NCBI GenBank assembly: GCA_012839015.1
Contig: DUOF01000143.1
Coordinates: 1 to 32,380, forward strand
Origin: a bacterium
GTDB taxonomy: Bacteria > Bacillota_I > Bacilli_A > RFN20 > DUOF01
DNA: 32,380 nucleotides
Direction: 5' to 3'
Shown one piece after another: positions 183-29,604 of this stretch. The notes under the pieces were generated by a model. The model worked only from the letters and a program-made list of their open reading frames with translations. It ran no database searches and was not told where the DNA came from. Positions within the stretch are counted from its first letter, which is position 1, and each line of letters begins with the position of its first letter. The translations under genes were made by a program, and so were the position numbers.

Positions 183-432
183 AACTTTTCCTCCTTTAAA
201 TAAAAAAGGTACCTTAAGGAACGTCATCTAGACGCGGTACCATCCTTTTTCATAAATAAAATTTATGCTCTTATACATTAACGCAGTCTCACGACTTTAG
301 TTACTAATTTCACTAAAGTAGCTCCAAAGTGATAATCCTAAACTAGTTATTAGTGCTTTTCACCATCCAGCACCTCTCTATAATAACTTTTGTCTAAGAT
401 CTTGTCTTTTTCTTAGCCTTTTTAATTTATAC
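183..432 (-). promoter_or_regulatory. T-box riboswitch leader of ileS (candidate Ile AUC specifier)
   Basis: The minus strand carries the T-box sequence GGATGGTACCGCG (245..233). It also has a Stem-I distal module, AGAGAG-GTGCT-GGATGGTGAAA-AGCAC, flanked by AGTTATTA/TAATAACT pairing (about 395..345). ATC followed by A lies in the descending strand (333..330). A terminator-like GGTACC...GGTACC helix with an inner CGTC/GACG pairing, followed by TTTTTT (241..202), sits just before the ileS SD. Confidence 0.75.
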
Positions 433-4849: not shown

Positions 4850-6786
4850 TATACTTCACTCCCTTCACTAAAATTATCTTCAAGGGTAAATTTAACGTTA
4901 TCCTCGATCCATTTTCTACGAACATCAACCTTATTACCCATTAAAACACTAACTCGACGATCGGCATTAACAAGGTCATCGACACTAACTTGAATTAGGG
5001 TTCTAGTTTTAGGATCCATGGTAGTTTCCCAAAGTTGTTCGGCGTTCATCTCACCTAGACCCTTATATCTTTGGATAGTGTATTTGTCACCGAGTTCTTT
5101 TTTAGCCTCTTCTAACTCAATTTCATCCCAAGCATACTTAAACTTTTCGCTCTTACCAACCTTTTTACTCACCTTATATAGAGGTGGACAAGCTAAGAAG
5201 ACCCTTCCGTGTTCAATCATCGGTCTCATGAAACGATAAAAGAAAGTAAGTAGGAGTACTTGAATATGTGCTCCATCGGTATCAGCATCAGTCATAATGA
5301 TTATTTTTCCATATCTTGCATCCTTGATATCAAAGTCTTCGCCTACACCTGCTCCAATAGTATGAATGATAGTAGATATCTCCTCATTCTTAAGAACATC
5401 TTCTATTCTAGTTTTCTCACTATTAATAACCTTACCTCTAAGCGGTAAGATGGCCTGATGGTGACGATCTCGTCCCTGTTTTGCACTACCACCGGCAGAA
5501 TCCCCTTCCACTAGGAATAGTTCATTTAACATCTTATTTTTAGATTGAGCCGGAGTTAGTTTACCACTTAAAATCCTTTCAACCTTATTCTTCTTAGAAT
5601 TTCTAGCATTTTCTCTAGCTTTTCTTGCAGCGTCTCTTACTTGTCTTGCTTTAAGCGATTTCTTAATAAGAGTCTGGGCTATTTCCTTGTTTTCCTCTAA
5701 GAATGCTGTTAGCTTTTCAAAAACAACATTCTCAACCGCACCTTTAGCTTCACTAGTACCTAGCTTACCTTTTGTTTGGCCTTCAAACTGAAGCAAATTT
5801 TCTCCGATCTTCAAAGATACAATCGCAGTAAGACCCTCTCTTACATCGCTTCCATCTAAATTCTTTTCTCTCTCTTTTAGGAAATTATATTTCCTGGCAT
5901 ATTCATTAAATGCTTTAGTAAAGGCAGTCTTAAGCCCCACTTCATGGGTACCACCATCAATTGTTCTTAAATTGTTAACAAAAGATAAAACACTTTCTTC
6001 ATACTCATTGCAAAATTGGAAAGCTACTTCTACTTGAATACCACTACTTTCTTGTTCAAAGTAAACTGGCTCATGTAAAGGCGTTTTTAGCTCGTTAACA
6101 AATTCAACAAAAGCAACAAGTCCATTCTCGTAACAAAATGTTTCTTGTCTATTTCCCTTTTCATCAATTAAAATTATTTCCAAACCTTTTATCAAGAAAG
6201 CACTCTCTTTAAGCCTTTCTGAAATAGTATTGTAATTAAAATCTATATCTGAAAATATCTTTCTATCTGGTTTAAAGCGTACTAGGGTACCGTGACGGTA
6301 ACTATTACCTACTACCTTTAAAGGTGAAACGAGGTTCCCCCCTTTTTCAAATCTAATATTATGTATTTTGCCATCTCTATAGATAGTAATATCCATAAAT
6401 TCACTTAAAGCATTAACTACACTCCCACCAACACCGTGTAGACCAGAAGAGGTCTTATAACCACCCTCTTGTCCAAACTTACCACCAGCATGTAAAACGG
6501 TATAAACTACTTCAGGTGTAGATTTACCAGAAACGTGTTTCCCGGTCGGGATACCTCTTCCCTCATCTTGTATAGAAATACTGTTATCTTTATGTAAAGT
6601 AACGACAATTTTATTTCCCCATCCGCCCATTGCCTCATCAATCGCGTTGTCGACTATTTCCCAAACTAGGTGATGTAGTCCTCGATAATCCGTGGAACCG
6701 ATATACATACCTGGTCTCTTCCTTACTGCTTGTAAACCTTCTAAAATTTGAATACTACTCTCATTATAACCACTACTAACGGACAC
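4849..6786 (-). CDS. parE: DNA topoisomerase IV subunit B
   Basis: 645 aa. LEGLQAVRKRPGMYIGST, EGDSAGGSAKQGRDR, PLRGKVIN and IIIMTDADTDGAHIQ. Length and the lack of a GyrB insertion fit ParE. The stop overlaps the parC ATG by 1 nt. Confidence 0.9.
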   Translation of the reverse strand: MSVSSGYNESSIQILEGLQAVRKRPGMYIGSTDYRGLHHLVWEIVDNAIDEAMGGWGNKIVVTLHKDNSISIQDEGRGIPTGKHVSGKSTPEVVYTVLHAGGKFGQEGGYKTSSGLHGVGGSVVNALSEFMDITIYRDGKIHNIRFEKGGNLVSPLKVVGNSYRHGTLVRFKPDRKIFSDIDFNYNTISERLKESAFLIKGLEIILIDEKGNRQETFCYENGLVAFVEFVNELKTPLHEPVYFEQESSGIQVEVAFQFCNEYEESVLSFVNNLRTIDGGTHEVGLKTAFTKAFNEYARKYNFLKEREKNLDGSDVREGLTAIVSLKIGENLLQFEGQTKGKLGTSEAKGAVENVVFEKLTAFLEENKEIAQTLIKKSLKARQVRDAARKARENARNSKKNKVERILSGKLTPAQSKNKMLNELFLVEGDSAGGSAKQGRDRHHQAILPLRGKVINSEKTRIEDVLKNEEISTIIHTIGAGVGEDFDIKDARYGKIIIMTDADTDGAHIQVLLLTFFYRFMRPMIEHGRVFLACPPLYKVSKKVGKSEKFKYAWDEIELEEAKKELGDKYTIQRYKGLGEMNAEQLWETTMDPKTRTLIQVSVDDLVNADRRVSVLMGNKVDVRRKWIEDNVKFTLEDNFSEGSEV

Positions 6787-6856
6787 ACAAAAACTCCTCT
6801 CAAAACGTCAATACTCAATTATTATACAAAAATTATTAGTCAATTGCACTATTTAA

Positions 6857-6864
6857 TGTATAAT
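6857..6864 (+). promoter_or_regulatory. Extended -10 element (TGTATAAT) upstream of plsY
   Basis: TGTATAAT lies about 20 nt upstream of the plsY SD/ATG. No convincing -35 was seen. Confidence 0.35.
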
Positions 6865-6882
6865 TAATGCGAGGTGGACCAT

Positions 6883-7521
6883 ATGTACTACATATTTTCA
6901 TTGAACGTTGGCTATTTGATTGGATCGATTCCTTTCTCATTATTATTAGGTAAAATCTTCTGTAAAAAAGATATTAGGGAAGCAGGAAGTGGTAACTTAG
7001 GTGCCAGTAATGCCGGTAGGGTTTTGGGTAAAAAAATTGGCATCGCCACTCTTTTACTTGATCTTCTTAAATGTAGCTTATCGGTTCTAATAATTTTCTT
7101 ACTACTTAGAAATAATCCTGATATAACCTATCTTTCTCACTACCTATACCTAGCAGGTATAGGAGCATTAATCGGGCATTGTTATCCTCTGTTTGCCTCA
7201 TTCAGGGGTGGTAAGGCAGTTGCTAGTACTTTTGGGTTTTTACTAATCATGAATTTATATTTATTTCTAATCGGGGTTGTTTTATTCTTCCTAATCTTAA
7301 AACTAACTAAGACTGTGAGTCTTTCATCAATGTTTAGTTTGGTATTTGTCGCCATTCTTTCATTCTTACCAATATTCAATAATTCTCTACTACTAGGAGT
7401 TAGCTTAGACCTAGCATTTAGTATTACTTTACTGGTAATGGTTTCACTAGTTATCTACCGACATGAATCTAATATAGTTAAGATAATGAATCGAAGTGAA
7501 AATAAAGTAACCTGGTTATAA
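6883..7521 (+). CDS. plsY: Glycerol-3-phosphate acyltransferase PlsY
   Basis: GSGNLGASNAGR and HCYPLFASFRGGKAVAS motifs in a polytopic membrane protein. The track starts at GTG 6874, but GAGGTGG (6871-6877) followed by ATG at 6883 is the better start. Confidence 0.9.
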   Translation: MYYIFSLNVGYLIGSIPFSLLLGKIFCKKDIREAGSGNLGASNAGRVLGKKIGIATLLLDLLKCSLSVLIIFLLLRNNPDITYLSHYLYLAGIGALIGHCYPLFASFRGGKAVASTFGFLLIMNLYLFLIGVVLFFLILKLTKTVSLSSMFSLVFVAILSFLPIFNNSLLLGVSLDLAFSITLLVMVSLVIYRHESNIVKIMNRSENKVTWL

Positions 7522-7530
7522 AATAGTATA

Positions 7531-7563
7531 AAAAAACAACTTAATCATTATAAGTTGTTTTTA
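7531..7563. terminator. Bidirectional intrinsic terminator between convergent plsY and yneF
   Basis: AAAAAACAACTTA-atcatta-TAAGTTGTTTTT. The perfect 8-bp stem ACAACTTA/TAAGTTGT extends into the flanking A-run and T-run, so it can work on both strands. Confidence 0.65.
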
Positions 7564-7577
7564 TATTTAACAGAGAA

Positions 7578-7787
7578 TTACTTATGTTTATTCATTGAAT
7601 TCATTACTTGTCTAATTTGGGTCTCGGATGGTTTTCTTCCCATTTGTAAGAACATCGCTCTAATCATTTTCTCATTGATCGGAGGATTTTTCTTCATTTG
7701 GTTCATGAACAAGTTTCTTGAAATAAAAAATCCAAGTATACCACCAACAAGTAAACCTCCAACTGCAAGTAAAATATCAATCAACAT
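7578..7787 (-). CDS. yneF: UPF0154 family small membrane protein (YneF-like)
   Basis: 69 aa. One N-terminal TM helix, then KKNPPINEKMIRAMFLQMGRKPSETQIRQVMNSMN. This matches the YneF signature (KKNPPINE.M.R.MM.QMG.KPS). The antisense 88-aa plus-strand ORF (7555-7821) is rejected. Confidence 0.8.
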   Translation of the reverse strand: MLIDILLAVGGLLVGGILGFFISRNLFMNQMKKNPPINEKMIRAMFLQMGRKPSETQIRQVMNSMNKHK

Positions 7788-7828
7788 ATTACAACCTCAT
7801 TTCTTTATCTATTCTAACTAATAGTTTT

Positions 7829-8233
7829 TTAAATTACAAGTCCCAGCCTGGCAATTTTATACTTATTTATATCAATTAAAATTAGGTCCGGAAAGTTTTT
7901 AGAGAGCGTATTTAAGAAGGGGCTCACTTCATAATCAGTTCTAATAACCATATAATTCTTTTTAAGATCTAATATCTCATAATTCTGGGTAATAAAGTTC
8001 TTTAAGTAATAAAAGTCTCCTTCTTGCTTATAATCGTCTCTAACCTTGAATTTTTGATCAATAATCTCTTTAATACTTTCCTTATCAACGTTTCTTAGGA
8101 AGGTTTTAAATTGTTTTTGATAATAGATATCCTCTTTACTTCTTAAATAGAGTTCATATAATGATTTTAAGTTATCATCATCAAACAAATTGGCAAAGTT
8201 ATTGTTCACCTGACACAAAAAATACTCTTTCAT
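7829..8233 (-). CDS. Hypothetical protein, SirA/YneE-like by position and pattern
   Basis: About 134 aa from ATG 8233. GGTGA lies 5 nt upstream, and the track start at 8242 is a GTG sitting inside that SD. The gene lies exactly between tkt and yneF, where B. subtilis carries yneE (sirA). The N-terminal FANLFDDDNLKSLYELY and the C-terminal hydrophobic pattern loosely resemble my recollection of SirA. Not verified. Confidence 0.4.
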   Translation of the reverse strand: MKEYFLCQVNNNFANLFDDDNLKSLYELYLRSKEDIYYQKQFKTFLRNVDKESIKEIIDQKFKVRDDYKQEGDFYYLKNFITQNYEILDLKKNYMVIRTDYEVSPFLNTLSKNFPDLILIDINKYKIARLGLVI

Positions 8234-8282
8234 TTTTATCACCGTTAGTAGTTTAACTAATTACAAAGTCGAATAAAGTAAA

Positions 8283-10232
8283 TTAGTGTTTGATTATACT
8301 CTTTATTTTTTTAGTTACACTCTTAACATCAAATTTATAGTCCTTGATAACATCAGATGCTTTACCACTTTTACCAAACGTATCAATTGAAATATTATGT
8401 TTAGCATATTTACCCCAACCAAAACTAGAAGCCATTTCTATTGAAATAGTTTTATCATAGTCTTTAAATATTTTTCTTTTGTATTTAGCATCTTGAACTT
8501 CAAATAGATCAAAAGAAGGCATTGAAATAACATTTACAAGAATCTCATCCTTCTCTAATTCTTGGGCACACTTCATAGCTAAATTAACCTCACTTCCTGT
8601 AGCAACAAGACTATATTTTGCTGTTAGATGCTCATGGACAAAATAAGCCCCTTTAGCAAAGTCTTCTTCACTAACTTCATAAAGCGTTTCTACGTTTTGT
8701 CTAGTTAGTATTATCGCTGTAGGTTTCTTACTTTGGAAGGCTACCTTATAAGCGTGTTTAGTAGTAAGTTCATTACTAGGTCTAATAACTGAGAAGTTAG
8801 GGATGCTTCTAAGCATTGCTAACTGTTCGATTGGTTGATGAGTCGGGCCGTCTTCTCCGACTGCGATTGAATCGTGTGAGAACAGACAGATTAAAGGCAG
8901 TGACATTAAACTAGCTAGTCTTAAAGCAGGTTTTAAATAGTCTGCAAAGACTAGGAACGTACCAATGAATGGTTTAACACCACCATGAAGTAGCATTCCG
9001 TTACTAATACTAGCCATAGCAAATTCTCTTATTCCAAAATTAATGTTTTGGCCAATAAAGTTAGTACTAGTTATAGCACTAGAATGTTCTAGGTATGTTT
9101 TGGTAGAACTAGCCACATCCGCACTACCACCGATAATAAAATCATTGTCTTTGCTTAGTAAATTAAGGAATTTACCCGAGGCATTCCTAGTAGCAATATT
9201 ATTATCTAGATCAATTGGATAATTATCAATTGAAGTGAAATCTATTTCACTATTTATTGCCCTTTCAAATGCTTCATAATCACTAGCATACTTTTCTTTA
9301 TATTGTTCTACTATAGTAAGCCATTTTTCATAGGCTTCTTGACCTCTTTTACCTAAGTTCTCTTTAAAGTCTAGATAAACCTCTTCACTAATTTCAAAAG
9401 GTTCATTGCTGACGCCTAGGCTCTCTCTTAACTGGATTAAATCATCCGCATCAAGTGGTGCTCCATGGGTAAGTGATTTGCCAGCATTGACTGAACCCAT
9501 ACCAATTATTGATTTATACATGATTAGAGTTGGTTTAGTGCTGTTTTTAGCCTTTTTTAGGGCACGTAGTAGTCTTTCAACATCATTACCATCTCTCACC
9601 TTAATAACGTTCCAATTGCAAGCAGTAAAGCGTTTAGGAACATCTTCACTAAATGAATTATTTAAAGGTCCGTCTAGAGTTACATCATTATTATCATATA
9701 AAACAATTAGTTTATTTAGTTTTAGGTGTCCTGCAAGGGAGATTGCTTCTTGAGTTACCCCTTCTTGCATATCTCCGTCTCCACATAAAGCATAAGTATA
9801 ATGATCAATTAGATTTAAATCCTTTTTGTTGTACTTACTCGCTAATATTTGCTCTGCTAGAGCCATACCAACCGCCATCGGTATTCCTTGCCCTAAAGGA
9901 CCACTAGTAGTATCTACTCCTTTAGTAAGTTCAATTTCGGGGTGTCCTGGGGTAATCGAGTTAACTTGTCTAAATTTCTTTAATTCTTCAATACTTATAT
10001 CAAAACCACTTAAATGTAAAATACCATATAGTAATGCAGAAGCATGACCACTTGCCAAAACAAAGCGATCTCGATTAATCCATTTATCTTCGCTTGGGTT
10101 AACATTTATTATATTGTTGTATAAAGCATACATCGCTGGGGCACTACCAAGCGCCATGCCTGGGTGTCCGCTGTTAGCTTTAGAAATAGAGTCCATCGCT
10201 AACATCTTCAACTCATTAATTGATTGGATCAT
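8283..10232 (-). CDS. tkt: Transketolase
   Basis: 649 aa. SGHPGMALGSAP, the ThDP motif GDGDMQEG...NN, and GEDGPTHQPIEQLA. Confidence 0.93.
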   Translation of the reverse strand: MIQSINELKMLAMDSISKANSGHPGMALGSAPAMYALYNNIINVNPSEDKWINRDRFVLASGHASALLYGILHLSGFDISIEELKKFRQVNSITPGHPEIELTKGVDTTSGPLGQGIPMAVGMALAEQILASKYNKKDLNLIDHYTYALCGDGDMQEGVTQEAISLAGHLKLNKLIVLYDNNDVTLDGPLNNSFSEDVPKRFTACNWNVIKVRDGNDVERLLRALKKAKNSTKPTLIMYKSIIGMGSVNAGKSLTHGAPLDADDLIQLRESLGVSNEPFEISEEVYLDFKENLGKRGQEAYEKWLTIVEQYKEKYASDYEAFERAINSEIDFTSIDNYPIDLDNNIATRNASGKFLNLLSKDNDFIIGGSADVASSTKTYLEHSSAITSTNFIGQNINFGIREFAMASISNGMLLHGGVKPFIGTFLVFADYLKPALRLASLMSLPLICLFSHDSIAVGEDGPTHQPIEQLAMLRSIPNFSVIRPSNELTTKHAYKVAFQSKKPTAIILTRQNVETLYEVSEEDFAKGAYFVHEHLTAKYSLVATGSEVNLAMKCAQELEKDEILVNVISMPSFDLFEVQDAKYKRKIFKDYDKTISIEMASSFGWGKYAKHNISIDTFGKSGKASDVIKDYKFDVKSVTKKIKSIIKH

Positions 10233-10408
10233 TCTTTCTTATCCTCTACTTTGTAAGCAGAAAGTTGTTGTTTAAAACCTTCCTTAAATAATTGCAAATA
10301 TTCTTTCCTAAGTTCTTGTTGTTCAATCGTCTCTTCTTTTGTTAAACCACTTGTCTTTTTTTTATTAGCTAGATAGTTTATTCTCTCTATTAATTTTTCG
10401 TCAATCAT
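10229..10408 (-). CDS. UPF0291/DUF896 small protein (YnzC-like), missing from the ORF track (59 aa)
   Basis: Minus-strand ATG at 10408 is preceded by GGAGG. Translation: MIDEKLIERINYLANKKKTSGLTKEETIEQQELRKEYLQLFKEGFKQQLSAYKVEDKKE. It follows the YnzC pattern (I.RIN.LA.K.K..GLT.EE..EQ..LR.EYL..F). The TGA stop overlaps the tkt ATG (ATGA). ynzC-tkt adjacency matches Bacillus. Confidence 0.7.
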   Translation of the reverse strand: MIDEKLIERINYLANKKKTSGLTKEETIEQQELRKEYLQLFKEGFKQQLSAYKVEDKKE

Positions 10409-10479
10409 TCTACTACCTCCAACACTAGTATAACAATTTTAACTTGTTTATTTAATTAATTATCCCTAATTAATTAGTT

Positions 10480-11130
10480 TTACTTTATTTCCTTAGCTTT
10501 AGGGATGATTAGTAATTTATCATCTTTCTCAATAATACAAATATAAATTTCACTTACATCTAAATAACCTTGTTTCTTAATTTCCTTCTTCACCCATTGT
10601 TCATCCTTTTCTGATTGTTTTAAAACAACCTTATCTATTTCACCATCTCTTATAATTGGAAAAGGCACAAGAGTCTTCTCTTTACCTTTTTGAATTACAC
10701 TTAAGACACCAGAGTTCTCTAATACAGCGAACTTTACATCACTTATAGAATCTACCCCCGAGATTCTTAACTGTTGCATCAAATCATCAACGTTATATCT
10801 CTCCTTCTTCATTAGTTTTTGATCAATTTTCCCGTTTTTAATAATAAAGGCGGGGTCTTGTTCTAGGAAGGTTCTTATTTTGTTACTCTTAAGCACTAAG
10901 AGGGAGATGGTTAACTGAGTTAAGACAATAACCATTATCGGTACTAATGCTTCCATAATTTTTTTATCAGGATCTTCGATTGCAACCGAGAAGATATCAG
11001 AAAGCATAAAAAAGACTACTATATCAAAAGCATTTAATTGTCCTACTTCCCTTTTTCCCATTATCCTCAAGAAAAACCATAGACTAGTTAAGAAAACTAA
11101 AGTCTTAATAATTAAATCAACATATCTCAT
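10480..11130 (-). CDS. DUF421 (YetF-like) membrane protein
   Basis: 216 aa. N-terminal TM helices with RIMGKREVGQLNAFDIVVFFMLSDI, and a C-terminal soluble domain, as in YetF/YkjA-type proteins. Confidence 0.7.
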   Translation of the reverse strand: MRYVDLIIKTLVFLTSLWFFLRIMGKREVGQLNAFDIVVFFMLSDIFSVAIEDPDKKIMEALVPIMVIVLTQLTISLLVLKSNKIRTFLEQDPAFIIKNGKIDQKLMKKERYNVDDLMQQLRISGVDSISDVKFAVLENSGVLSVIQKGKEKTLVPFPIIRDGEIDKVVLKQSEKDEQWVKKEIKKQGYLDVSEIYICIIEKDDKLLIIPKAKEIK

Positions 11131-11190
11131 TAACTTTCTCCTTCTAAATAGAAGTAAAAGACATATATTTTACTAGGAGGTATTTCTTTT

Positions 11191-13252: not shown

Positions 13253-13642
13253 CTATGCAGCCGGAATTTCTTTATCAGTTTTTTGATAGTTTTGTGTGTA
13301 TTCATCTTGAGTAAGGTTTAGAGTAGTGTCAGAAGTTAAGTCAATAGCCCATATAATTTTGCCATCTCTTCCCTCAACTAAAAATTCTAGTGTGTTTCCT
13401 TTTCTAGTAAAAGTGTAAGTCTCCTCAGAATGGGAGATTTCCTCACTTGATGCCTTGTAAGTCATTGTTAGTTTATCTTCTTTAAATTCGATGAATGCAT
13501 AATCATAGATCCATCCATTTGAAGTAGAAACCATTTCATACTTTTCATTCAGTTTGTAGTCATTAATATCCTTTTTAAAGCATCCTGTCAAGGCTAACAG
13601 GCTTAAAAAAACAACGAAAATATTTTTAATTATTCTATTCAT
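13253..13642 (-). CDS. Hypothetical lipoprotein
   Basis: 129 aa. Signal peptide with lipobox LALTGC (MNRIIKNIFVVFLSLLALTGC). AAGGAG lies upstream. No recognisable family. Confidence 0.65.
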   Translation of the reverse strand: MNRIIKNIFVVFLSLLALTGCFKKDINDYKLNEKYEMVSTSNGWIYDYAFIEFKEDKLTMTYKASSEEISHSEETYTFTRKGNTLEFLVEGRDGKIIWAIDLTSDTTLNLTQDEYTQNYQKTDKEIPAA

Positions 13643-17807: not shown

Positions 17808-18179
17808 TTATCTAGTTATATTAACCTCAACTTCGTTTTCTTCTTCCCTAGATAATCTTTCACTAGTTTTCTTGAACAATATTCCAAAAGCTTGTTTTGG
17901 ATCTAATTCTTTAATGTCTCTTATTTTTGTATTTTCTAATTCCCTTATATATTCTAGATAACTACTATATAAATTATCATAAAAATTATAACCAAATTCT
18001 TCTCTGCAATCAAAGACGGCATTTAATAGTTGACTCTTAAAATCTTTTGCTTTCTTTACTGTTACATTGCCTAGGTCACTTTTATCATTATAAAGTTTAA
18101 CCATTCCCTCAGGATCTAGAGAAATTGATTTCATGTTATCAATTATCTTTTGATATTCTTCCAGGATGTTCCTTTTCAA
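17808..18179 (-). CDS. Hypothetical acidic helical protein (second half of a split ORF pair)
   Basis: Open frame of 123 codons. The track start is a TTG at 18179 with no good SD. The first ATG is at 18134. It overlaps the upstream ORF by 41 nt in a different frame. Confidence 0.4.
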   Translation of the reverse strand: MKRNILEEYQKIIDNMKSISLDPEGMVKLYNDKSDLGNVTVKKAKDFKSQLLNAVFDCREEFGYNFYDNLYSSYLEYIRELENTKIRDIKELDPKQAFGILFKKTSERLSREEENEVEVNITR

Positions 18180-21809: not shown

Positions 21810-22883
21810 CTACTTTAGAAACTCAGGAATTAAATCCTCTTCATCACTAGTTGTTTCACTACTAGTGTCTCCAATATCTAAAGTTGTTTGTTCGATCTTA
21901 GTATTTCTAACTAGGGTATAATTCTCTCTAATATAGTCCTCATCAAAATCAGTAGCAATGATTGATACTTTGATTTGATCTTCTATAGATTCATGTTGAG
22001 AGGCACCCAAAATTACATTTATGTCGCTGCCTGCTGCATCATTAATAATTTCTATTACATCATTAATATCAAATAGGGATAAACTTGTGTCCCCAGTAAC
22101 GTTAACGATGGCATTCTTAGCACCAGCGAAGGAAGCCTCTAGTAGAGGAGAAGAAATAGCCTTGTTAGTAGCATCGCTAACTTTATTAGGGCCATTACCA
22201 GTACCAAAACCAATCATGGCAATACCTTTATTTTGCATAACAGTCTTCACATCAGCAAAGTCACTATTAATAAAGTCGGTAGTACCAATTAAGTCTGTGA
22301 TGGTTCTAACACTCTGAGTCAAAATACCGTCAGCTTTCTTAAATGATTTACTAAATGGCATTTCGCCATCGATTTGTAATAATCTATCATTAGAAACTAT
22401 AATTAGTGAATCAACATGTTCTTTAAGGGCTTGTACACCTTCGCTAGCCTGGAAACCTCTAGTTTTACCTTCAAAGGTAAATGGTTTAGTAACCACTCCA
22501 ATAGTAAGCGCACCAAGTTCTTTAGCAATTCTTGCAATAACTGGCGCTGCCCCAGTACCAGTGCCTCCACCCATTCCTGCAGCAATAAAAATCATATCAG
22601 CACCTTCAAGAGCGGCTTTTATCTCCTCTTCACTCTCAATAGCAGACTCCCTACCAATTTCTGGATTTGACCCAGCTCCTAGTCCTTTGGTAATACTATG
22701 TCCTAAAATTATTCGATTCTGACACTTAGATTTATAAAGTGTTTGAATGTCGGTATTAGCAACCCAAAATTCTACCCCTTCAATTTCTTCTTCTAACATG
22801 TGGTTGACAGCGTTGTTGCCACCCCCACCAACACCGATTACTTTAATCGTGCAAAGTGGTTTTTGTCCGTAATTTTCAGTCAT
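21810..22883 (-). CDS. ftsZ: Cell-division GTPase FtsZ
   Basis: IKVIGVGGGGNNAVN, the tubulin signature GMGGGTGTGAAPVIA, and the C-terminal peptide DLIPEFLK. Confidence 0.97.
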   Translation of the reverse strand: MTENYGQKPLCTIKVIGVGGGGNNAVNHMLEEEIEGVEFWVANTDIQTLYKSKCQNRIILGHSITKGLGAGSNPEIGRESAIESEEEIKAALEGADMIFIAAGMGGGTGTGAAPVIARIAKELGALTIGVVTKPFTFEGKTRGFQASEGVQALKEHVDSLIIVSNDRLLQIDGEMPFSKSFKKADGILTQSVRTITDLIGTTDFINSDFADVKTVMQNKGIAMIGFGTGNGPNKVSDATNKAISSPLLEASFAGAKNAIVNVTGDTSLSLFDINDVIEIINDAAGSDINVILGASQHESIEDQIKVSIIATDFDEDYIRENYTLVRNTKIEQTTLDIGDTSSETTSDEEDLIPEFLK

Positions 22884-22895
22884 AGTTGCTCCCCC

Positions 22896-24131
22896 TTATA
22901 GATCATCTTCATTTAAAGTCAAAGTATCAAAATTAGAGAATTCTTTTTCTTTATTACCTTCATTAGTGATTATATCATTTTCATTTTCTATTTGTAAATT
23001 TTTATATCCCTTTTGTCCTAGATTATTATAAGTGAGTTTAATAAGTCCATAAGTTTGGATATTATTGGCTTTAGTAATCCCTAGAACATTAGATTTAGCC
23101 ACACTAGTTTCGACTTTAGCTAGTTGGTAGAATTTAGCATCTAAATTCTTAATCTCACTACCATAGCCACAAATAACTACTTCAAACTTATCCTTAAACA
23201 AGAGATTATTAGTTTCACTAAGCACTTGCTCTAGCAAAGCATTTAATTTAGCTTCGATTATTTTAGAGAGTTCCCTCTCACTAAGATAACTTACTCTACC
23301 ATTTATTTCTGATTTATAGATAGAATAATCGCTAGCTAGTTCACTCCTAGCATTACCATTTACTAATACTAATTCACGGGCCTGAGCAAGTTCCATATTA
23401 TAGGTAGTTGCCACCTCTTTTATAATACTTTCAATACCTTCTCCAAGAGAAATATATTTTAACAAACGTCCTTTTCTATAGATGTTTAGTCTAGTGGTGA
23501 ATCTAGAAAGATCCAGCACGGCAATATCTAGATCATCTTCACTAAATGCACCTTCATAAAGACAAATAGTATCAAGGAATTGGTATTCAACTTTTAAATT
23601 ACAAGCCTTAATAATTCTCTTATAAGTATTAATAAGTTCTTTTGGTAGAGTTAACAAGTTGTAACGTATTTTAAAAGTAGAAGATCTATATCCAAGTGGT
23701 ACAAAATTATGGGTTTCGTCATTATCTACTGTAAAGTCGATTGGGATGACTTCAATTATTTCTTGTCCCTCTTCAACCCTTGATTTATACGCGATTCTAA
23801 TAGCGTTATCAATATCAGTTTGGGTTATTAGTGAATTTTTACCGTTTACCGGAGAAGTCGCAGTTCTTTCTGAAATAGTAATACTATAAGAAGGAAGGCA
23901 CAGTGAAACGCTATTTATGTCTATCTCAATCTTACGTCTTGCAAGTGCTAGAAGTGAATTAAGTGTGTCGATAACTTCTTTTTCATCTACTATTTGTTCT
24001 CCTGCTAGTCCCTTAGAAGAACTAGTGAAAACATCGTAAATGTAGAAATTTGAATTAAAAAACTCTCCAACAGTTAGTCTAATTTGACCATCAATTAATT
24101 CCAAAGTAGTAAAGATTTGATTTCTATTCAT
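22896..24131 (-). CDS. ftsA: Cell-division protein FtsA (divergent)
   Basis: 411 aa with an actin/Hsp70-fold length and pattern. It sits between divIB and ftsZ. The C-terminus is acidic (…NFDTLTLNEDDL) rather than an amphipathic helix. Confidence 0.8.
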   Translation of the reverse strand: MNRNQIFTTLELIDGQIRLTVGEFFNSNFYIYDVFTSSSKGLAGEQIVDEKEVIDTLNSLLALARRKIEIDINSVSLCLPSYSITISERTATSPVNGKNSLITQTDIDNAIRIAYKSRVEEGQEIIEVIPIDFTVDNDETHNFVPLGYRSSTFKIRYNLLTLPKELINTYKRIIKACNLKVEYQFLDTICLYEGAFSEDDLDIAVLDLSRFTTRLNIYRKGRLLKYISLGEGIESIIKEVATTYNMELAQARELVLVNGNARSELASDYSIYKSEINGRVSYLSERELSKIIEAKLNALLEQVLSETNNLLFKDKFEVVICGYGSEIKNLDAKFYQLAKVETSVAKSNVLGITKANNIQTYGLIKLTYNNLGQKGYKNLQIENENDIITNEGNKEKEFSNFDTLTLNEDDL

Positions 24132-24143
24132 TTAATCACCTAT

Positions 24144-24944
24144 TCAATCAATTGGACATTTATTTTCTAGTAAATAACAGTTTATACTTACCGGATTGTC
24201 TACACTTGTAATTATATCATTTTCTTCTATATATTGACCAACTTTTTCCACTATTTCTTCATATTTCTCTAGCGAAAGTTTAGTGTCTAGGTAGTTTAAT
24301 TCATTGGTAATTAATAAATAACTCTCGTTATCATCTAAAAATAATGTCTTAGCATAATAAAAGGAAGATGAGCCGATTGGTTCTAGGCTTATCTCTAGCA
24401 TATTATTTAGGACTTTAGTGTCGAGTTTAGCCATCTTACTAATGAGCAGTAATTTAGTTTCAGCATCTAGTTGACCACTAATTAATGGCAAATTATTTAA
24501 ATCATTATAATAATGATATTCATGTTTATTAATTGTTTTACCGTTGCTTAGCAAAAGTAGATTGTCTTGATATCCTATCGGTACGATCTCTTCAATGTGA
24601 ATACTTATATTAAACGGTGTTCTTTTAAATCTTACATAACTAACATAAGGGTGTTCATTTAATAGCTCAACCCCTTTAGTCTCATCAATAAGTAACAGTA
24701 AACTGCGCTCATTAATATCCATAATTTCATTTAATTCATCATCACTAATATATACATTACCAGTGTAGGTAATCTTACCTACTCGAGAAACAGGCAAGAT
24801 AAAATATAGGCCAATTAAAGCCCAGATAACAAGTACCAGTAGTAAACGTGCTTTTTTTCGGTTCCTTCTACGTTTTTGATAGTTTTCTCTTTGAACGTCT
24901 AAGGAAAATGTTTTGGTTGTGAAAGCAGCAGTGTCGTTTTGCAA
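24144..24944 (-). CDS. divIB: Cell-division protein DivIB/FtsQ
   Basis: 266 aa. Basic cytoplasmic N-terminus (RRRNRKKAR), a single TM helix, a POTRA-like segment (VSRVGKITYTGNVYISDDEL), and a beta-rich ectodomain. TTG start lies 8 nt after GGAGG. Confidence 0.7.
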   Translation of the reverse strand: MQNDTAAFTTKTFSLDVQRENYQKRRRNRKKARLLLVLVIWALIGLYFILPVSRVGKITYTGNVYISDDELNEIMDINERSLLLLIDETKGVELLNEHPYVSYVRFKRTPFNISIHIEEIVPIGYQDNLLLLSNGKTINKHEYHYYNDLNNLPLISGQLDAETKLLLISKMAKLDTKVLNNMLEISLEPIGSSSFYYAKTLFLDDNESYLLITNELNYLDTKLSLEKYEEIVEKVGQYIEENDIITSVDNPVSINCYLLENKCPID

Positions 24945-24949
24945 TTAAA

Positions 24950-25102
24950 CTACCTCCGATCGATAACTATTATCTCCCTTATTAGTTTGATACCACTGTA
25001 ATGATACACTTTTTTCCTAATTAATTCAATTAAATAAAGCACATCTTTGCTTTTGGCGTCCCCGGTATTTATGATGAAATTAGCATGTTTTTCACTAATC
25101 AT
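24950..25102 (-). pseudogene. murB: Relic of the murB C-terminus (last ~50 codons only)
   Basis: Minus-strand ORF MISEKHANFIINTGDAKSKDVLYLIELIRKKVYHYSGIKLIREIIVIDRR matches the conserved MurB C-terminal block (GG..VS.KHANF.VN.G.A...D...LI..V...V....G..L..EV..IG). The two codons before the ATG still read GG, and an in-frame TGA lies just before those. Its position immediately upstream of divIB is the canonical murB position. Confidence 0.7.
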
Positions 25103-25137
25103 CTTTCCACCTCAAGAAAATATACGAATAAAGCAAA

Positions 25138-25166
25138 TAAAAAATACTAACTAGATTTAGTTAGTA
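25138..25166 (-). terminator. Intrinsic terminator T2 (second of a tandem pair after ftsL)
   Basis: Minus strand TACTAACTA-aatc-TAGTTAGTA (perfect 9-bp stem) followed by TTTTTT. Confidence 0.7.
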
Positions 25167-25176
25167 CAAAAAATTA

Positions 25177-25204
25177 ATAAAAAAGCTATATGTTTATAGC
25201 TTTT
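25177..25204 (-). terminator. Intrinsic terminator T1 directly after ftsL
   Basis: Minus strand AAAGCTATA-aaca-TATAGCTTT (9-bp stem) followed by TTTATTAATTTTTT. The stem overlaps the ftsL stop codon. Confidence 0.7.
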
Positions 25205-25433
25205 AGTCGTTATTCTTTATTTGTGCAGTTTTCACAGTAATTTCTTCAATTAACTTAATATTAACTGATTCAATTTCATTTAATTCTTCTTTCATGACAA
25301 CGTTTTCATTGGCAACAGTGTTTATTCTTGGTACAACAAATATTAGAGTAAACAAAGTAATCATGCTTACACAAATAGCAAATGTCCTTATTTGATAATC
25401 AATTTTTGTTTTCATTTTCTTCTTAATAATCAT
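25203..25433 (-). CDS. ftsL: FtsL-like bitopic division protein
   Basis: About 76 aa from ATG 25433, with AAGGGTGG upstream. Basic N-terminus, one TM helix (FAICVSMITLFTLIFVV), and a short coiled-coil ectodomain. It sits right after rsmH, as ftsL does. Confidence 0.55.
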   Translation of the reverse strand: MIIKKKMKTKIDYQIRTFAICVSMITLFTLIFVVPRINTVANENVVMKEELNEIESVNIKLIEEITVKTAQIKNND

Positions 25434-25448
25434 TGTAACCACCCTTTT

Positions 25449-26399
25449 CTATATTTTTTCTAAAATTCTTAGTTTTGCACTGTGTGAACGTCTGTTCTCA
25501 GTTAGTTCTTCTTCACTAGGTAAGATAACCTTTTTGTTTACTACCTGGTATTTAACTTTATTCTCTGTTGGTAAGCCAAGTGGCATATTTTTGTTCCACT
25601 TCTCGCCTTCTGAGACTTCTTTGAAGATCTTTTTGACTATTTTGTCTTCTAATGAATGAAATGTTATTACTGCTATCCTGCCTCCTTTATTTAATAGGTT
25701 AACCGCTTTTCTTAGAGCAGTTTCTATATTGTTTAATTCATCGTTTACTTCGATCCTTATAGCTTGAAAGGTTCTTTTGGCTGGATGACCTTCTCTTAGT
25801 TTAGAAGGTGGGAAGCTTTTTTTAATTATTTCTACTAGTTCTAGAGTAGTAGCGATATCCTTTTCTTTTCTTTGTTTTACAATATTCCTTGATATGCTTT
25901 TAGCAAACTTCTCTTCTCCATACTTAGAAATGATTTCATATAACTTAGCTTCCGTATAGGTATTAACAACAGTGTAAGCGTCAAGAGTTTGTTCTACATT
26001 CATTCTCATATCTAGTTTTGCATCTTTGTTATATGAGAATCCCCTTTCACCGTTATCAAGCTGGGGAGATGAGACACCTAAATCAAATAATATACCGTCA
26101 ACGTGTTTTACGTTTCTATTAGCTAATTCTTCCTCAATTTTTGAGAAGTTAGCGTGTATCAGTTCATATCGGGGAGATATTGTTGATAGCTTTGACTTAG
26201 ATGCCTCAATAGCTTCTTTGTCAAGATCGAATGCATATAGCATACCTTGACTGGATAATTTTTTAAGAATTTCAGAACTATGTCCTGCCCTCCCTAAGGT
26301 GGCATCTACATATGTTCCATCTTCTTTAATGTTGAGTCCATCAATGGACTCTCTTAATAACACAGAAATGTGTTTTTGCTTCTTAGTTTCCATAACCAC
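25449..26399 (-). CDS. rsmH: 16S rRNA (cytosine1402-N4)-methyltransferase RsmH (MraW)
   Basis: HISVLLRESI, DATLGRAGHS, FDLGVSSPQLD and ITFHSLEDKIVK. Confidence 0.94.
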   Translation of the reverse strand: MVMETKKQKHISVLLRESIDGLNIKEDGTYVDATLGRAGHSSEILKKLSSQGMLYAFDLDKEAIEASKSKLSTISPRYELIHANFSKIEEELANRNVKHVDGILFDLGVSSPQLDNGERGFSYNKDAKLDMRMNVEQTLDAYTVVNTYTEAKLYEIISKYGEEKFAKSISRNIVKQRKEKDIATTLELVEIIKKSFPPSKLREGHPAKRTFQAIRIEVNDELNNIETALRKAVNLLNKGGRIAVITFHSLEDKIVKKIFKEVSEGEKWNKNMPLGLPTENKVKYQVVNKKVILPSEEELTENRRSHSAKLRILEKI

Positions 26400-26814
26400 T
26401 CAGCTTCTCAGCGACTTCTTCTAGTGAATCAGACGCATCTTCGTAGTACTTGTCCCACATTTCTTTTGACCAAATCTCAATACGGTTTAATACTCCTACA
26501 ATTACGCATTCTTTAGTAATGCTAGCTCCTTGAAGCAAGTTGTTTGATAAGTTAATTCTTCCTTGCTTATCAAATTCAACCTCATTAGCACTTCCTACAA
26601 GAACCCTTACATGTTTACGTGCATCCATCGTATTGGCAGGTAATGCCAGTAATGATGTTTGAAATTTATTCCATTCATCTAGCGAAAATAGTGACAAACA
26701 TCCATCAAAGCCCTTGGTAACAACTACTTTACTCGATAGCTTCTCTCTTAGTTTGGCTGGTATGATAATACGTCCCTTGTCATCTATATTATGTAGATAT
26801 TGTCCCATTAACAT
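26383..26814 (-). CDS. mraZ: Transcriptional regulator MraZ
   Basis: MLMGQYLHNIDDKGRIIIPAKLR... and a second SpoVT/AbrB-type repeat, DKQGRINLSNNLL. ATG at 26814 gives the canonical MxMG start. The track start at 26826 is a GTG inside the SD/operator. Confidence 0.94.
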   Translation of the reverse strand: MLMGQYLHNIDDKGRIIIPAKLREKLSSKVVVTKGFDGCLSLFSLDEWNKFQTSLLALPANTMDARKHVRVLVGSANEVEFDKQGRINLSNNLLQGASITKECVIVGVLNRIEIWSKEMWDKYYEDASDSLEEVAEKLSGYGN

Positions 26815-26822
26815 ATTACCAC

Positions 26823-26849
26823 CCACTTTCTACCACTTTCTACCACCTG
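26823..26849 (-). promoter_or_regulatory. Three 10-bp-phased direct repeats, candidate MraZ operator
   Basis: Minus strand CAGGTGG-tag-AAAGTGG-tag-AAAGTGG (plus-strand ccacttt at 26823 and 26833, ccacctg at 26843). The repeats lie between the predicted -10 and the mraZ SD. Confidence 0.6.
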
Positions 26850-27476: not shown

Positions 27477-28280
27477 ATGAGTAAGATTATTGCCACCGAT
27501 TTAGACGGTACATTTCTTTATCCGAAGCGTAAATTTTTCTTAGTAGACAAACGCTACAAAAAAATAATCAATCGATATCCTGGTGAAATTGTTTTTGCTA
27601 CTGGCAGGGGTGACAGGTTCTGTCGCCGCATTAATCGATTGTTAGATGCTAAAGAAAATTACATCTGTTTTAATGGTGCTCTAGTTATTAGAGATGGTGA
27701 GATAATTTTTAGACATTCTTTAAGGAAAGTTGCCCTTACCCATTTATACAACTACGTACTTGAAAATTACAGTGGTATTCATTTCTACTTGTTTGATAAT
27801 AAAAATAGAATCGTTCTAAGTGGCAACACTAGTAAATATTTAATGTATAAATCTTATATAAAGAGAATTTTTAGAAGTGGAAGATATAGCGAGTTTTTTA
27901 ATATTAGTCAAAAGCTAACTAATACCCTTTTAAGGGACGAAACCAGTATTTACAAGGCGATGATATATGTCGATAAAAACTTAGAAAATATTTACTATGA
28001 TTTAATCAAGAACTTCGGTGAGTATTTTAACTTTTATCTAAATCTATCCTCGATAGAGATTTCCCCTAAAGGTGTTTCTAAGGGGACAGCTTTAGAGTTT
28101 CTAATAAAAGAAATGGGAATCGATAAGAGTGATGTCCTGGTCGCAGGCAATGATCAAAATGATTTGACCTTATTTGAGATGTTCGAGAATTCCTTTGCTA
28201 TTAGAAATAGCGAAGGATTAATTAAAAACAAAGCAAAATACGTTATTAATGATTTTGCTGAGATTGAAAAATATTTGTAG
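27477..28280 (+). CDS. Cof-type HAD-IIB family phosphatase
   Basis: 267 aa. Motif I TDLDGT, ATGR, the cap region, and motif IV GNDQNDLTLFEM. Confidence 0.85.
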   Translation: MSKIIATDLDGTFLYPKRKFFLVDKRYKKIINRYPGEIVFATGRGDRFCRRINRLLDAKENYICFNGALVIRDGEIIFRHSLRKVALTHLYNYVLENYSGIHFYLFDNKNRIVLSGNTSKYLMYKSYIKRIFRSGRYSEFFNISQKLTNTLLRDETSIYKAMIYVDKNLENIYYDLIKNFGEYFNFYLNLSSIEISPKGVSKGTALEFLIKEMGIDKSDVLVAGNDQNDLTLFEMFENSFAIRNSEGLIKNKAKYVINDFAEIEKYL

Positions 28281-28291
28281 TGGGGGATAAC

Positions 28292-28831
28292 ATGGATAAG
28301 GAAAAAGAACTATCTATCGATGCTAGAAATTTATATTTATCTTTTTATGATCTTCAGTTTGAAAAGTTCAAACTTGACATAAACACTATTTTTGCTTCCT
28401 TTAAAAACAAGAACTATTTAAGTTTTGGTTATGAACAAGCTTATGAAGATAAGAAAAATAATCTTGAAAGGTATTTAGACTCATTAACTGATGGACTTAT
28501 TTTTGATGATGCCCAGAAACTATATGATATTTATTATTCTGATAGTGTTGAAGAGGCTTATTGCTATATTGAGAACTATAATATGAACACCGATCAATTT
28601 ATTGAAGTAATCTTAAATAAAAATGATGCCGTTGTAACTGAATTAGAAAAATTAATCTATCGAATAGATAATGATAAAAGCCGTTTCTCTAATATTAGTG
28701 ACACTGATAAAGTAACTTTGAAAAGCGCTATTAGGAAATATATTAATCGAATGTTAGACTTCTCCCATTCTATTAATATATTAATGAGTGATTTTATTAG
28801 CGATATCGAAGAAATCAAATTTGTAGACTAA
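28292..28831 (+). CDS. Hypothetical acidic all-helical protein
   Basis: 179 aa from ATG 28292, preceded by GGGGGA. The track start at 28280 is a GTG overlapping the HAD stop. No TM segment and no recognised motif. Confidence 0.55.
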   Translation: MDKEKELSIDARNLYLSFYDLQFEKFKLDINTIFASFKNKNYLSFGYEQAYEDKKNNLERYLDSLTDGLIFDDAQKLYDIYYSDSVEEAYCYIENYNMNTDQFIEVILNKNDAVVTELEKLIYRIDNDKSRFSNISDTDKVTLKSAIRKYINRMLDFSHSINILMSDFISDIEEIKFVD

Positions 28832-28863
28832 CTAATTTATTAACATAGAACAGGAGTAAAATT

Positions 28864-29604
28864 ATGAATGATACCAGTTTAATAGTACTAGACTTAACTA
28901 AATCTAATCAGCAAATAAGCGAGCTTATCGAACTTGCTCATACTACTTATGAATATAAGGAGGATCTAGTTGATAAAGCTTTTTTAGATTTGCATAAGAG
29001 TTTTAAAAACGGCTTTCTAAGTAACCTGATTGACCATCTTTTTGATGATCCTAAAGTAATAAAGAGAGTCCTTTCAGGACTTTTTAGATATTATGAATCT
29101 AATAAGAAGATGCTTAAAATGATTGAGTCTAAAAAAGTTAAAGATAAACTTAGTTATATCCACACTATAATCGAATCTCATGATTGTTTAGAGGCCATCA
29201 ACAAATCATTTATTGATCAAAACGAGGGCTTAGATAATAAACTAATTGAATTAATTGGAGTCGGTAACGAACTATATATTGGTTCACTAACATTTGCAGT
29301 ATTTAATTTATTATCAGAATACCTAAAAAAGGACAGCCCTTTTATATACCGTGATGCTGATATTAAGGAATGCCTATATATCTTAGTGTATTGTCAAAAA
29401 GTAAATAAAGACGCTGATGAATTAGGAGAACTACTAGATGATGCTTTCAACTTCTTAAATGACAAAGAAAATCTAAATGAAACTAACGAAACTAAGTTTC
29501 TTGAGATGTATAAAGCGGTTTCTAAAATATGTGTAGACTTAGAATTAAAGAGAAGTGAACTCTATAATGACTTAACCTCTAAAATAAAAAATGAAAACAA
29601 TTGA
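28864..29604 (+). CDS. Hypothetical acidic helical protein
   Basis: 246 aa. AGGAG lies 8 nt upstream. No recognised motif. Confidence 0.6.
   Translation: MNDTSLIVLDLTKSNQQISELIELAHTTYEYKEDLVDKAFLDLHKSFKNGFLSNLIDHLFDDPKVIKRVLSGLFRYYESNKKMLKMIESKKVKDKLSYIHTIIESHDCLEAINKSFIDQNEGLDNKLIELIGVGNELYIGSLTFAVFNLLSEYLKKDSPFIYRDADIKECLYILVYCQKVNKDADELGELLDDAFNFLNDKENLNETNETKFLEMYKAVSKICVDLELKRSELYNDLTSKIKNENN

Follow-up and report, generated by a model that had tools for sequence, protein, structure and literature searches.

Across orders of the Bacilli, peptidoglycan and sporulation genes have been lost repeatedly, and the loss is still going on (Field, Bowerman and Hugenholtz 2024, PMC10868615). In the same study, no large loss of wall genes was seen without loss of sporulation genes. 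In Bacillus subtilis, transcription of the genes murB-divIB-...-ftsA-ftsZ starts in part at a promoter located inside murG (PMC6827917). As for Clostridioides difficile, the FtsW and FtsI homologues encoded in its dcw (division and cell wall) cluster are reported to be sporulation-specific (PMC10693644). The locus considered here is the dcw cluster of an uncultured member of the Bacilli in contig DUOF01000143.1 (assembly GCA_012839015.1). The window is this complete contig of 32,380 bp, taken from a third-party annotation metagenome-assembled genome (MAG) of the National Center for Biotechnology Information (NCBI); about 60 kb of the species were read overall. Its minus-strand gene order is mraZ-rsmH-ftsL-[relic]-divIB-ftsA-ftsZ, where the relic is an open reading frame (ORF) of 50 codons. 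With a probability of roughly 80%, we consider this ORF a non-functional remnant, left when a Bacillus-type dcw cluster recently lost its peptidoglycan block by deletion.

Identity of the reading frame between ftsL and divIB

The relic (24950..25102, minus strand), currently annotated as hypothetical protein GXZ34_05245, is the only ORF in the 258-nt interval between ftsL and divIB. A sequence-only reading of this DNA had given its position and translation together with the ftsL stop, the TTG start of divIB at 24944, and a GGAGG motif, all of which are present, and had assigned the peptide to the extreme C-terminus of MurB. Searches against MurB profiles agree with that assignment: the relic matches MurB_C of Pfam (PF02873) above the gathering score (E=1.1e-13, profile positions 50-99 of 99) and the NCBIfam MurB equivalog at positions 249-300 of 303 (E=3.6e-17). 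It is also 52% identical to the MurB C-terminus of a relative (L099). Its scores, however, stay below the cut-offs for the MurB enzyme (62.2 bits vs 259 for NF010480, 45.8 vs 144.5 for TIGR00179). The first half of MurB_C is not in the relic, so that the complete 99-position domain is missing, and the N-terminal domain PF01565, which binds flavin adenine dinucleotide (FAD), is absent from the relic locus, where the upstream 100 nt form a pbpB leader in which the frame of MurB is interrupted by stops. Thus, homology is confined to one end of the parent gene, and the relic is syntenic with it, in the same orientation and directly upstream of divIB, as in the relatives L035, L065, and L099.

Regarding the 5' end of the relic, the in-frame codons ahead of its ATG read TGA-GGT-GGA-AAG. 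The sequence-only reading had noted the two glycine codons and the TGA that precedes them; the codons are indeed there, but according to contig L087 (described below) they are part of the pbpB leader and ribosome-binding site (RBS) and do not represent the GG motif of MurB. The same holds for what had been taken as the relic's own GAGGTGG, resembling a Shine-Dalgarno (SD) sequence, and its own ATG: both form the pbpB initiation region, which the deletion moved beside murB codons. Codons 1-2 of the relic (M, I) derive from pbpB, and the last ~48 murB codons follow from about 25095 on. Genetic code 4 (TGA = Trp), which would extend the ORF, was also considered and rejected, since table 11 yields full-length genes throughout the window and the TGA belongs to the leader of pbpB. 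By these homologies, the relic is no MurB enzyme but what remains of murB as a pseudogene, joined to the initiation region of pbpB. As for annotation, the 50-aa "hypothetical protein" should be called a murB remnant.

Direct searches for further copies were less productive. When the 53-aa relic served as the query of a protein search, its sole match was the relic itself, but the same search missed the 245-aa fusion described below, which shares identical runs of 12-18 aa with it, and so gives no evidence of absence. A profile search with an alignment of MurB C-termini found generic MurB fragments only (at most 61% identity) and is uninformative on an intact murB of the same species. A metagenome scan with a 25-nt invariant motif of the relic recovered only the already known FZPS piece, and a scan of the ftsL-divIB interval against Rfam found no RNA family.

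Deletion junctions and coexisting alleles

Six Logan contigs (L087-L092), with DivIB in the same 90%-identity cluster, carry between ftsL and divIB a 245-codon ORF that matches both PBP_dimer and MurB_C. Its residues 1 to ~176 correspond to the membrane anchor and pedestal of a class B penicillin-binding protein (PBP) and end in ...GFVGIDNQGLAGIEA, and residues ~177-245, the last ~69 of MurB, read PAWKLISSVDLKGCKKGGAMVSEKHANF...IDRR. According to NCBIfam, residues 12-176 belong to SpoVD/PBP2 (best match SpoVD, TIGR02214, E=1.1e-40) and residues 177-244 to MurB. The nearest intact PBPs run on through ...GIEAYY... into the transpeptidase domain with its STFK motif, and both PF00905 and STFK are present in the nearest intact homologues (P0030-P0033). 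The fusion, in contrast, has a transmembrane (TM) segment and part of PBP_dimer without PF00905 or SxxK, and is thus not a class B PBP. Judging from these matches, the 245-aa ORF is an in-frame pbpB'::'murB fusion in which both ends of the deletion are preserved.

Comparison of the two alleles locates the breakpoint. The 100-nt spacer at 25103..25202 (minus strand), the former ftsL-pbpB leader ending in the pbpB SD GAGGTGG, has a near-identical counterpart in L087 (93% identity, two single-base gaps, 'cttgaGGTGGaaagATGATTA' included). The deletion junction in the window is a 16-nt repeat, GGTGGAAAGATGATTA, which comprises the pbpB RBS, ATG, and codon 2 (25096..25111, minus strand). L087 contains imperfect 16-nt direct repeats at 2430 and 3015, namely GGTGGAAAGATGATTA and GGTGGTGCGATGGTTA, the latter encoding the murB codons GGAMV. 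The sequence-only reading had proposed to find the breakpoints by aligning the ftsL-divIB intervals of relatives, and it is this alignment that places the junction at 16-nt repeats 585 bp apart. The window allele equals the fusion allele minus 585 bp, with a single hybrid copy of the repeat remaining at 25111-25096. As for the fusion, its own junction falls on a match of ~5 nt (GAAGC/GAAAGC at '..IE|A/SPAW..').

In this species, then, illegitimate recombination at short matches has removed the interior of the cluster. The sequence of the window allele is the one to be expected if the 16-nt stretch around the pbpB RBS and start crossed over with its look-alike in murB. The product of such a crossover has the pbpB leader, SD, ATG, and codon 2 in frame with the last ~48 murB codons.

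The relic arrangement is found in 4 further independent assemblies (L001, L082, L084, and L085; GCA_900198705.1, GCA_040364275.1, Logan SRR28883303, and JGI 3300002898), which are 98.5-99.5% identical to the window. Two types of junction occur among them: the window, L082, and L084 read GGTGGAAAGATGATTAGTG, and L001 and L085 read GGTGGTGCGAT(G/A)GTTAGTG. Polymorphisms in the flanks are shuffled relative to the junction type. The existence of 2 variants means that the crossover either was resolved at different points or occurred twice. Longer remnants are kept in L083 and L086, whose divIB-ftsZ region is 98-99% identical to that of the window and which retain more of murB (AGSVFKNPIESPAWKL...). 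In L083, the corresponding sequence reads AGSVFKNPIESPAWKLISSVNLKGFKRGGAMVSEKHANF, with no TGA ahead of GG; upstream of AGSVFKNP stops appear in every frame, and then the contig ends. L083 also has a +1 frameshift, and the start codon in L085 is ATA, not ATG.

Thus, the fusion, the relic with two junction types, and a longer decaying murB coexist in one species. The relic haplotype 'FTINTGDS', which differs from the window at 7 nt, is common to L082 (relic type) and L086 (long murB), and all four combinations of junction type and spacer haplotype occur. These shared haplotypes and mixed combinations indicate recombination among strains or recurrent deletion. Compared with window positions 26826-21810, the fusion-bearing contigs L087-L092 are 98-99% identical in mraZ-rsmH-ftsL, but only 93.5-95% identical in divIB-ftsA-ftsZ; the drop downstream of the scar points to a recombination breakpoint at or near it.

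The sequence-only reading had called the interval a deletion scar reaching from pbpB into murB, and the pbpB'-'murB fusion at exactly this site in L087-L092 bears this out, together with the intact gene order in relatives. Less-deleted states are represented by L087-L092, L083, and L086, and the intact block by L099, and the repeats explain the breakpoints. On these alignments, the view that a deletion from pbpB into murB produced the relic is strongly supported.

Sister lineages, timing, and the fate of the wall genes

In L099, a more distant relative, the order murE-mraY-murD-ftsW-murG-murB-divIB-ftsA-ftsZ-...-sigE-sigG-sepF is intact, and L065 and L035 have rsmH-ftsL-pbp-mraY-murD-murG-murB-divIB. 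This gene order in relatives shows that the ancestor carried ftsL-pbpB-...-murB-divIB. By analogy with the same relatives, the deleted interior probably measured ~6-8 kb and included mraY, murD, ftsW/spoVE, and murG. The sequence-only reading had listed everything from pbpB through most of murB as missing; the interior is certainly absent from the window, while the content between these two genes is inferred from relatives only. A scan of a genome collection with RsmH found no genome of the same species or genus (best match 63% identical), although its seeding with exact peptides is likely to overlook relatives at 70% identity.

Among the sister lineages, the nearest one by DivIB is represented by L095-L098 (DivIB 37%, MraZ 72%, RsmH 70%, and FtsZ 73% identity). 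These contigs have the order mraZ-rsmH-ftsL-[263 nt]-divIB-ftsA-ftsZ-rsmE-mtaB-deoC, and 110 nt of their spacer are 75% identical to the 3' part of the relic, with two frameshifts (E=3e-16). Their spacer also contains a 31-codon ORF, MIKIILTSHCYVQLIRNNKFVNKATSEDVHF, that aligns to the PBP N-terminus, with 0 of 5000 shuffles reaching the observed score. The scar junction of L095-L098 is unlike those of the window species. In a third lineage, L100, only 46 nt separate ftsL from divIB; they consist of a hairpin, a T-run, and an SD, and no relic is left. A fourth lineage, L093, has kept pbp, which is 71% identical to the PBP part of the fusion.

Two further features of L093 were noted. Between its ftsL and pbp (6603-10972) sit a trypsin-like protease and proteins of 396 and 442 aa without Pfam match. 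Its pbp ORF is 327 aa long and stops 200 bp short of where the contig ends, which may reflect either a decaying pbp or an assembly error. Short proteins with PBP_dimer and Transpeptidase domains also recur at ~299-307, 360, and 418 aa among uncultured Bacilli (P0044-P0148); being below the normal class B size, they may be truncated at contig ends or form a genuine short family.

With RsmH identities of 68-71% and MraZ identities of 70-79%, the window species, L093, L095, and L100 stand at about the same distance from one another. Between the PBP part of the fusion and the pbp of L093, identity at codon positions 1/2/3 is 0.75/0.83/0.44, and the corresponding values are 0.73/0.83/0.49 for mraZ and 0.77/0.80/0.46 for rsmH. 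Since the profile of pbpB matches those of mraZ and rsmH, pbpB has been under purifying selection for nearly the whole divergence. The deletion in the window species is therefore recent, and independent of the losses in L095 and L100. One ancient deletion shared by all three and followed by erosion was judged unlikely because of this profile of a selected gene, the longer murB in L083, and the different junction in L095. The same block thus appears, from the compared loci, to have been lost independently in at least 2 sister lineages, which means that it is dispensable across the clade, either because the wall has been given up or because its functions are encoded elsewhere. By this comparison of clusters, it is a group of uncultured Bacilli that repeatedly deletes the wall genes of its division cluster.

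Of these two possibilities, we give an even chance to the one in which the wall is still built from genes located elsewhere and the dcw copy is dispensable and being deleted. The remaining set could be a second one, or the deleted dcw copy could have been specific to sporulation, like SpoVD/SpoVE in C. difficile. In agreement with this, ftsL, divIB, and a gene of the LCP family are retained, a SigG-like factor is intact, and the PBP part of the fusion matches SpoVD best (TIGR02214, E=1.1e-40). The sporulation-specific synthases reported for the C. difficile dcw cluster (PMC10693644) provide a precedent, and the nearest Bacilli MAGs hold mur genes away from mraZ-rsmH-ftsL-pbp. On the other hand, none of the contigs examined contains a second copy; murB, murG, and mraY are housekeeping genes that normally occur once per genome, and selection on pbpB until recently speaks against long-standing redundancy.

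We lean somewhat against wall loss being under way, although it is a serious possibility and compatible with the explanation of the relic as a scar. In that case, mraY, murD, ftsW, murG, murB, and the division PBP had no copies outside the deleted block, no peptidoglycan is made, and the lineage has taken a Mollicutes-like turn while still carrying ftsL, divIB, ftsA, and ftsZ. Such a course would fit the independent deletion of the block in three roughly equidistant sister lineages, the several alleles within one species, and the decaying murB remnant of L083 with stops in every frame. Among 5.8 billion protein clusters, no protein besides the fusion is at least 90% identical to the N-terminal part of pbpB, so that they contain no recently relocated copy of pbpB. 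The clade also belongs to the part of the Bacilli for which gene content indicates that peptidoglycan has been lost repeatedly and is still being lost (PMC10868615). However, all three lineages without the block keep ftsL and divIB intact and subject to purifying selection, with within-species ratios of nonsynonymous to synonymous polymorphism (pN/pS) of 0 and 0.11, respectively, and both are known solely as regulators of septal wall synthases. In GCA_900198705.1, an intact LCP (TagU-like) gene, for a transferase of glycopolymers to peptidoglycan, lies on the same scaffold, and the window itself has an intact SigG-like sporulation sigma factor.

The SigG-like factor (1474-2247, minus strand) is encoded downstream of parE-parC and aligns end to end with NF006071, scoring 350 bits against a cut-off of 372. 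In L099, sigE-sigG follow ftsZ as in Bacillus, which bears on whether the lineage still sporulates.

The most far-reaching scenario is put forward tentatively, as we think it unlikely. It holds that a clade of uncultured low-GC Bacilli, known from digester and gut-type metagenomes, is giving up its wall. Three sister lineages would each be losing their sole copies of pbpB, mraY, murD, ftsW, murG, and murB through separate microhomology deletions; intermediates (decaying murB, fusion, relic, or none) would be segregating within one species, with ftsL, divIB, ftsA, and ftsZ selected throughout. If the mur genes are absent genome-wide, the lineage would be in a rare transitional state, wall-less yet with FtsL and DivIB. 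Wall loss, if true, would bear on the origin of the Mollicutes and the Firmicutes-to-Mollicutes transition, on divisome function, and on what FtsL and DivIB do without a wall. If the mur genes are elsewhere, the locus documents an ordinary operon rearrangement unusually well.

Persistence of the relic, its surroundings, and known systems

Deletion as the origin of the relic leaves the question of why its 3' part is kept. Within the relic, a promoter-like element, TTGAAT-17 nt-TATCAT (25001..25029, minus strand), reaches 9 of 12 matches in a consensus scan. At -10, the L087 group has TATGAT and the contigs L095-L098 have TATAAT, and neither the -35 hexamer nor the spacing changes, so that TTGAAT-17-TAT(C/G/A)AT is kept in 13 of 13 contigs of two lineages. 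The SD of divIB, GGAGG (24953..24957, minus strand), lies within the final codons of the relic, 8 nt ahead of the TTG; as the sequence-only reading had remarked, it sits inside the relic as it would in an intact operon, and it is kept in all same-species contigs and in L095. The 88 nt from TTGAAT (25029) to the divIB start have one variable base across 12 same-species contigs, and the adjoining divIB varies up to 6.5% across the same contigs. Between the window and L095, third-codon identity in this stretch is 70% (23/33), compared with 41-52% in six real genes (binomial p about 0.01 for the excess over ~0.48).

According to the mechanism proposed here, the 3' two-thirds of the relic would be kept for expression signals of divIB(-ftsA-ftsZ), that is, the SD and a candidate sigma-70-like promoter, TTGAAT-17-TATNAT, ~55 nt upstream of the divIB start. 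Deletions reaching further would have harmed expression of the division genes. The conserved promoter-like motif and the divIB SD, both recognized from conservation among contigs, thus probably explain the retention of the 3' DNA. In more general terms, a fragment of a dead gene can persist by carrying expression signals of the next, still essential gene.

Upstream of the relic, RNA folding predicts two terminator-like hairpins, each followed by a T-run: AAAAGCTATA-AACA-TATAGCTTTT at 25175..25204, overlapping the ftsL stop, and GTACTAACTA-AATC-TAGTTAGTAT at 25135..25167 (both minus strand). The 121-nt spacer folds with z = -2.4. Both hairpins are AT-rich, with 10-bp stems, and fall short of the three G-C pairs that the terminator scan requires. 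Comparable hairpins with a T-run follow ftsL in L087, L095 (3600-3650), and L100 (~1848-1875), and these structures may form a conserved attenuator or terminator ahead of the next gene. The peptide as such would be without function; since an intact RBS precedes it, it may be produced, though only on transcripts that pass both hairpins.

Several points weigh against this account of origin and retention. The content assigned to the deleted interval depends on relatives with 33-37% DivIB identity, and the nearest Bacilli MAGs (L003, L004, L013, and L015) have unrelated genes after pbp. The contigs with longer murB, L083 and L086, are low-coverage contigs from ENA (2.4-3.5x). The data fit equally a window allele derived from the fusion allele and one derived straight from the intact cluster. 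As for the promoter, it is a consensus match only, and such matches are no commoner here than in shuffled sequence; the conservation around it could partly reflect the MurB motif LIELIKKKV and AT-biased codon use. L100 does without the relic, so its signals are not indispensable. Finally, the relic's pN/pS of 0.22 (13 segregating sites) resembles purifying selection; it may be inherited from a functional murB, and probably predates the deletion because relic haplotypes are shared with longer alleles.

The sequence-only reading had suggested instead that the relic is translated as a micropeptide or to couple translation of divIB, and a selected micropeptide or an obligatory coupling seems very unlikely. 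It is true that 4 of 5 relic-type contigs have an unbroken ORF preceded by a good SD (GAGGTGG, 5 nt, ATG), that its stop lies 5 nt before the weak divIB TTG with the divIB SD in its last codons, and that the pN/pS of 0.22 would suit a selected peptide. However, the ATA start in L085 and the +1 frameshift in L083 contradict the suggestion, as do the broken frame in L095, where an ORF from the pbpB start ends 90 nt before divIB, and the complete lack of a relic in L100. Moreover, conservation sits in the 3' DNA, the N-terminal half of the peptide holds most of the 13 polymorphic sites, and two terminator-like hairpins precede the ORF.

A chimeric contig in which assembly or binning joined ftsL to a murB fragment can be dismissed: the source is a MAG and the related record FZPS01000040.1 consists of small contigs joined across N-gaps, but the identical junction comes from 5 independent assemblies of different projects, 8 more contigs hold related alleles, and the 4 assemblies other than the window thus leave no room for an artefact. 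A rearrangement inside ftsA, suggested by the deviating flanks of L001, was rejected as well, the flanks being 100-N scaffold gaps. In GCA_900198705.1, scaffold FZPS01000040.1 (645,920 bp) links small contigs through such 100-N gaps (L001 ~6713-6817 and 11090-11190). Neighbourhoods spanning these gaps, including that of the LCP gene (L001 12276-13127), have no more than a loose link to the dcw piece.

The genes around the relic, all on the minus strand, were assigned as follows. mraZ, the first gene of the cluster (26383..26826), matches Pfam MraZ with E=1.6e-40, and rsmH (mraW; 25449..26399) matches Methyltransf_5 with E=1.3e-120. The ftsL-like gene (25203..25442) encodes a small membrane protein with the position, size, and TM/coiled-coil look of FtsL; its ORF starts at GTG 25442, gene callers pick ATG 25433 (76 aa), and the stop is at 25205-25203. 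Pfam and NCBIfam profile searches gave no match for it, and it is 37-55% identical to the same-position genes of L093, L095, and L100. Of the ftsQ type, divIB (24144..24944, TTG start) has weak POTRA and FtsQ_DivIB_C matches in Pfam; a set of 1.84 billion representatives contains 190 homologues of it, and the closest one other than itself is 37% identical. It is followed by ftsA (22896..24131; SHS2_FTSA, E=5.8e-10) and ftsZ (21810..22883; Tubulin, E=1.3e-50; FtsZ_C, E=4e-26).

Elsewhere in the window, a T-box leader lies near the start (214-423, minus strand; Rfam RF00230, 130 bits vs a gathering score of 93). ORFs of 120-250 aa at 7829-8242, 13253-13642, 17808-18179, and 28280-29604 have no Pfam or NCBIfam match, and two adjacent plus-strand ORFs, which lie beside a HAD hydrolase (27477-28280), have conserved counterparts in L082 and L085.

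Compared with the MurB C-terminal domain (PF02873), the relic shares the last 50 of 99 positions, including the motifs SxKHANFIxN and LIELI. It differs from MurB in having neither the FAD-binding domain nor the first half of MurB_C, and cannot be an enzyme. With the Bacillus-type dcw cluster, the locus has in common both cluster ends, canonical in order and orientation, and the divIB SD in the murB tail, whereas the whole interior is gone, from the pbpB start codon to the last ~48 murB codons. As in B. subtilis, where a sigma-M promoter lies inside murG (PMC6827917), a promoter for division genes may lie in a preceding wall gene; the candidate here, however, is in the murB tail, has a sigma-70-like consensus, and its host gene is dead, which would leave selection acting on the embedded signals alone.

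Like the dcw clusters of wall-less Mollicutes (mraZ-rsmH-...-ftsZ), the window cluster is reduced to regulatory and division genes; in a Spiroplasma locus (L022), MraZ and RsmH are followed by FtsZ 1.3 kb further. In contrast to these clusters, the window keeps conserved ftsL and divIB and a recognisable scar, and TGA is a stop (table 11). As in the microhomology deletions (illegitimate recombination) by which reductive genomes acquire gene-fusion pseudogenes, imperfect repeats of small size mark the junctions here (16 nt in the relic, ~5 nt in the fusion). What differs is that a single species-level population contains several deletion products of this one locus, and sister lineages add more.

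Reductive loss of wall genes in Mollicutes-related Bacilli is already known in kind from Field et al. (2024, PMC10868615), who report the same phenomenon, with independent losses in neighbouring lineages and intermediates persisting today. Their evidence is the presence or absence of gene families per genome, and dcw, murB, ftsL, and divIB are not mentioned. Loss of the wall has happened many times in the Bacilli and has so far been known only through gene presence and absence in finished lineages, whereas here the breakpoints, the repeats, and the coexisting products can be seen. What is new is the nucleotide-level series of scars, the junctions at microhomologies, the polymorphism within a species, and the parallel loss in sister lineages.

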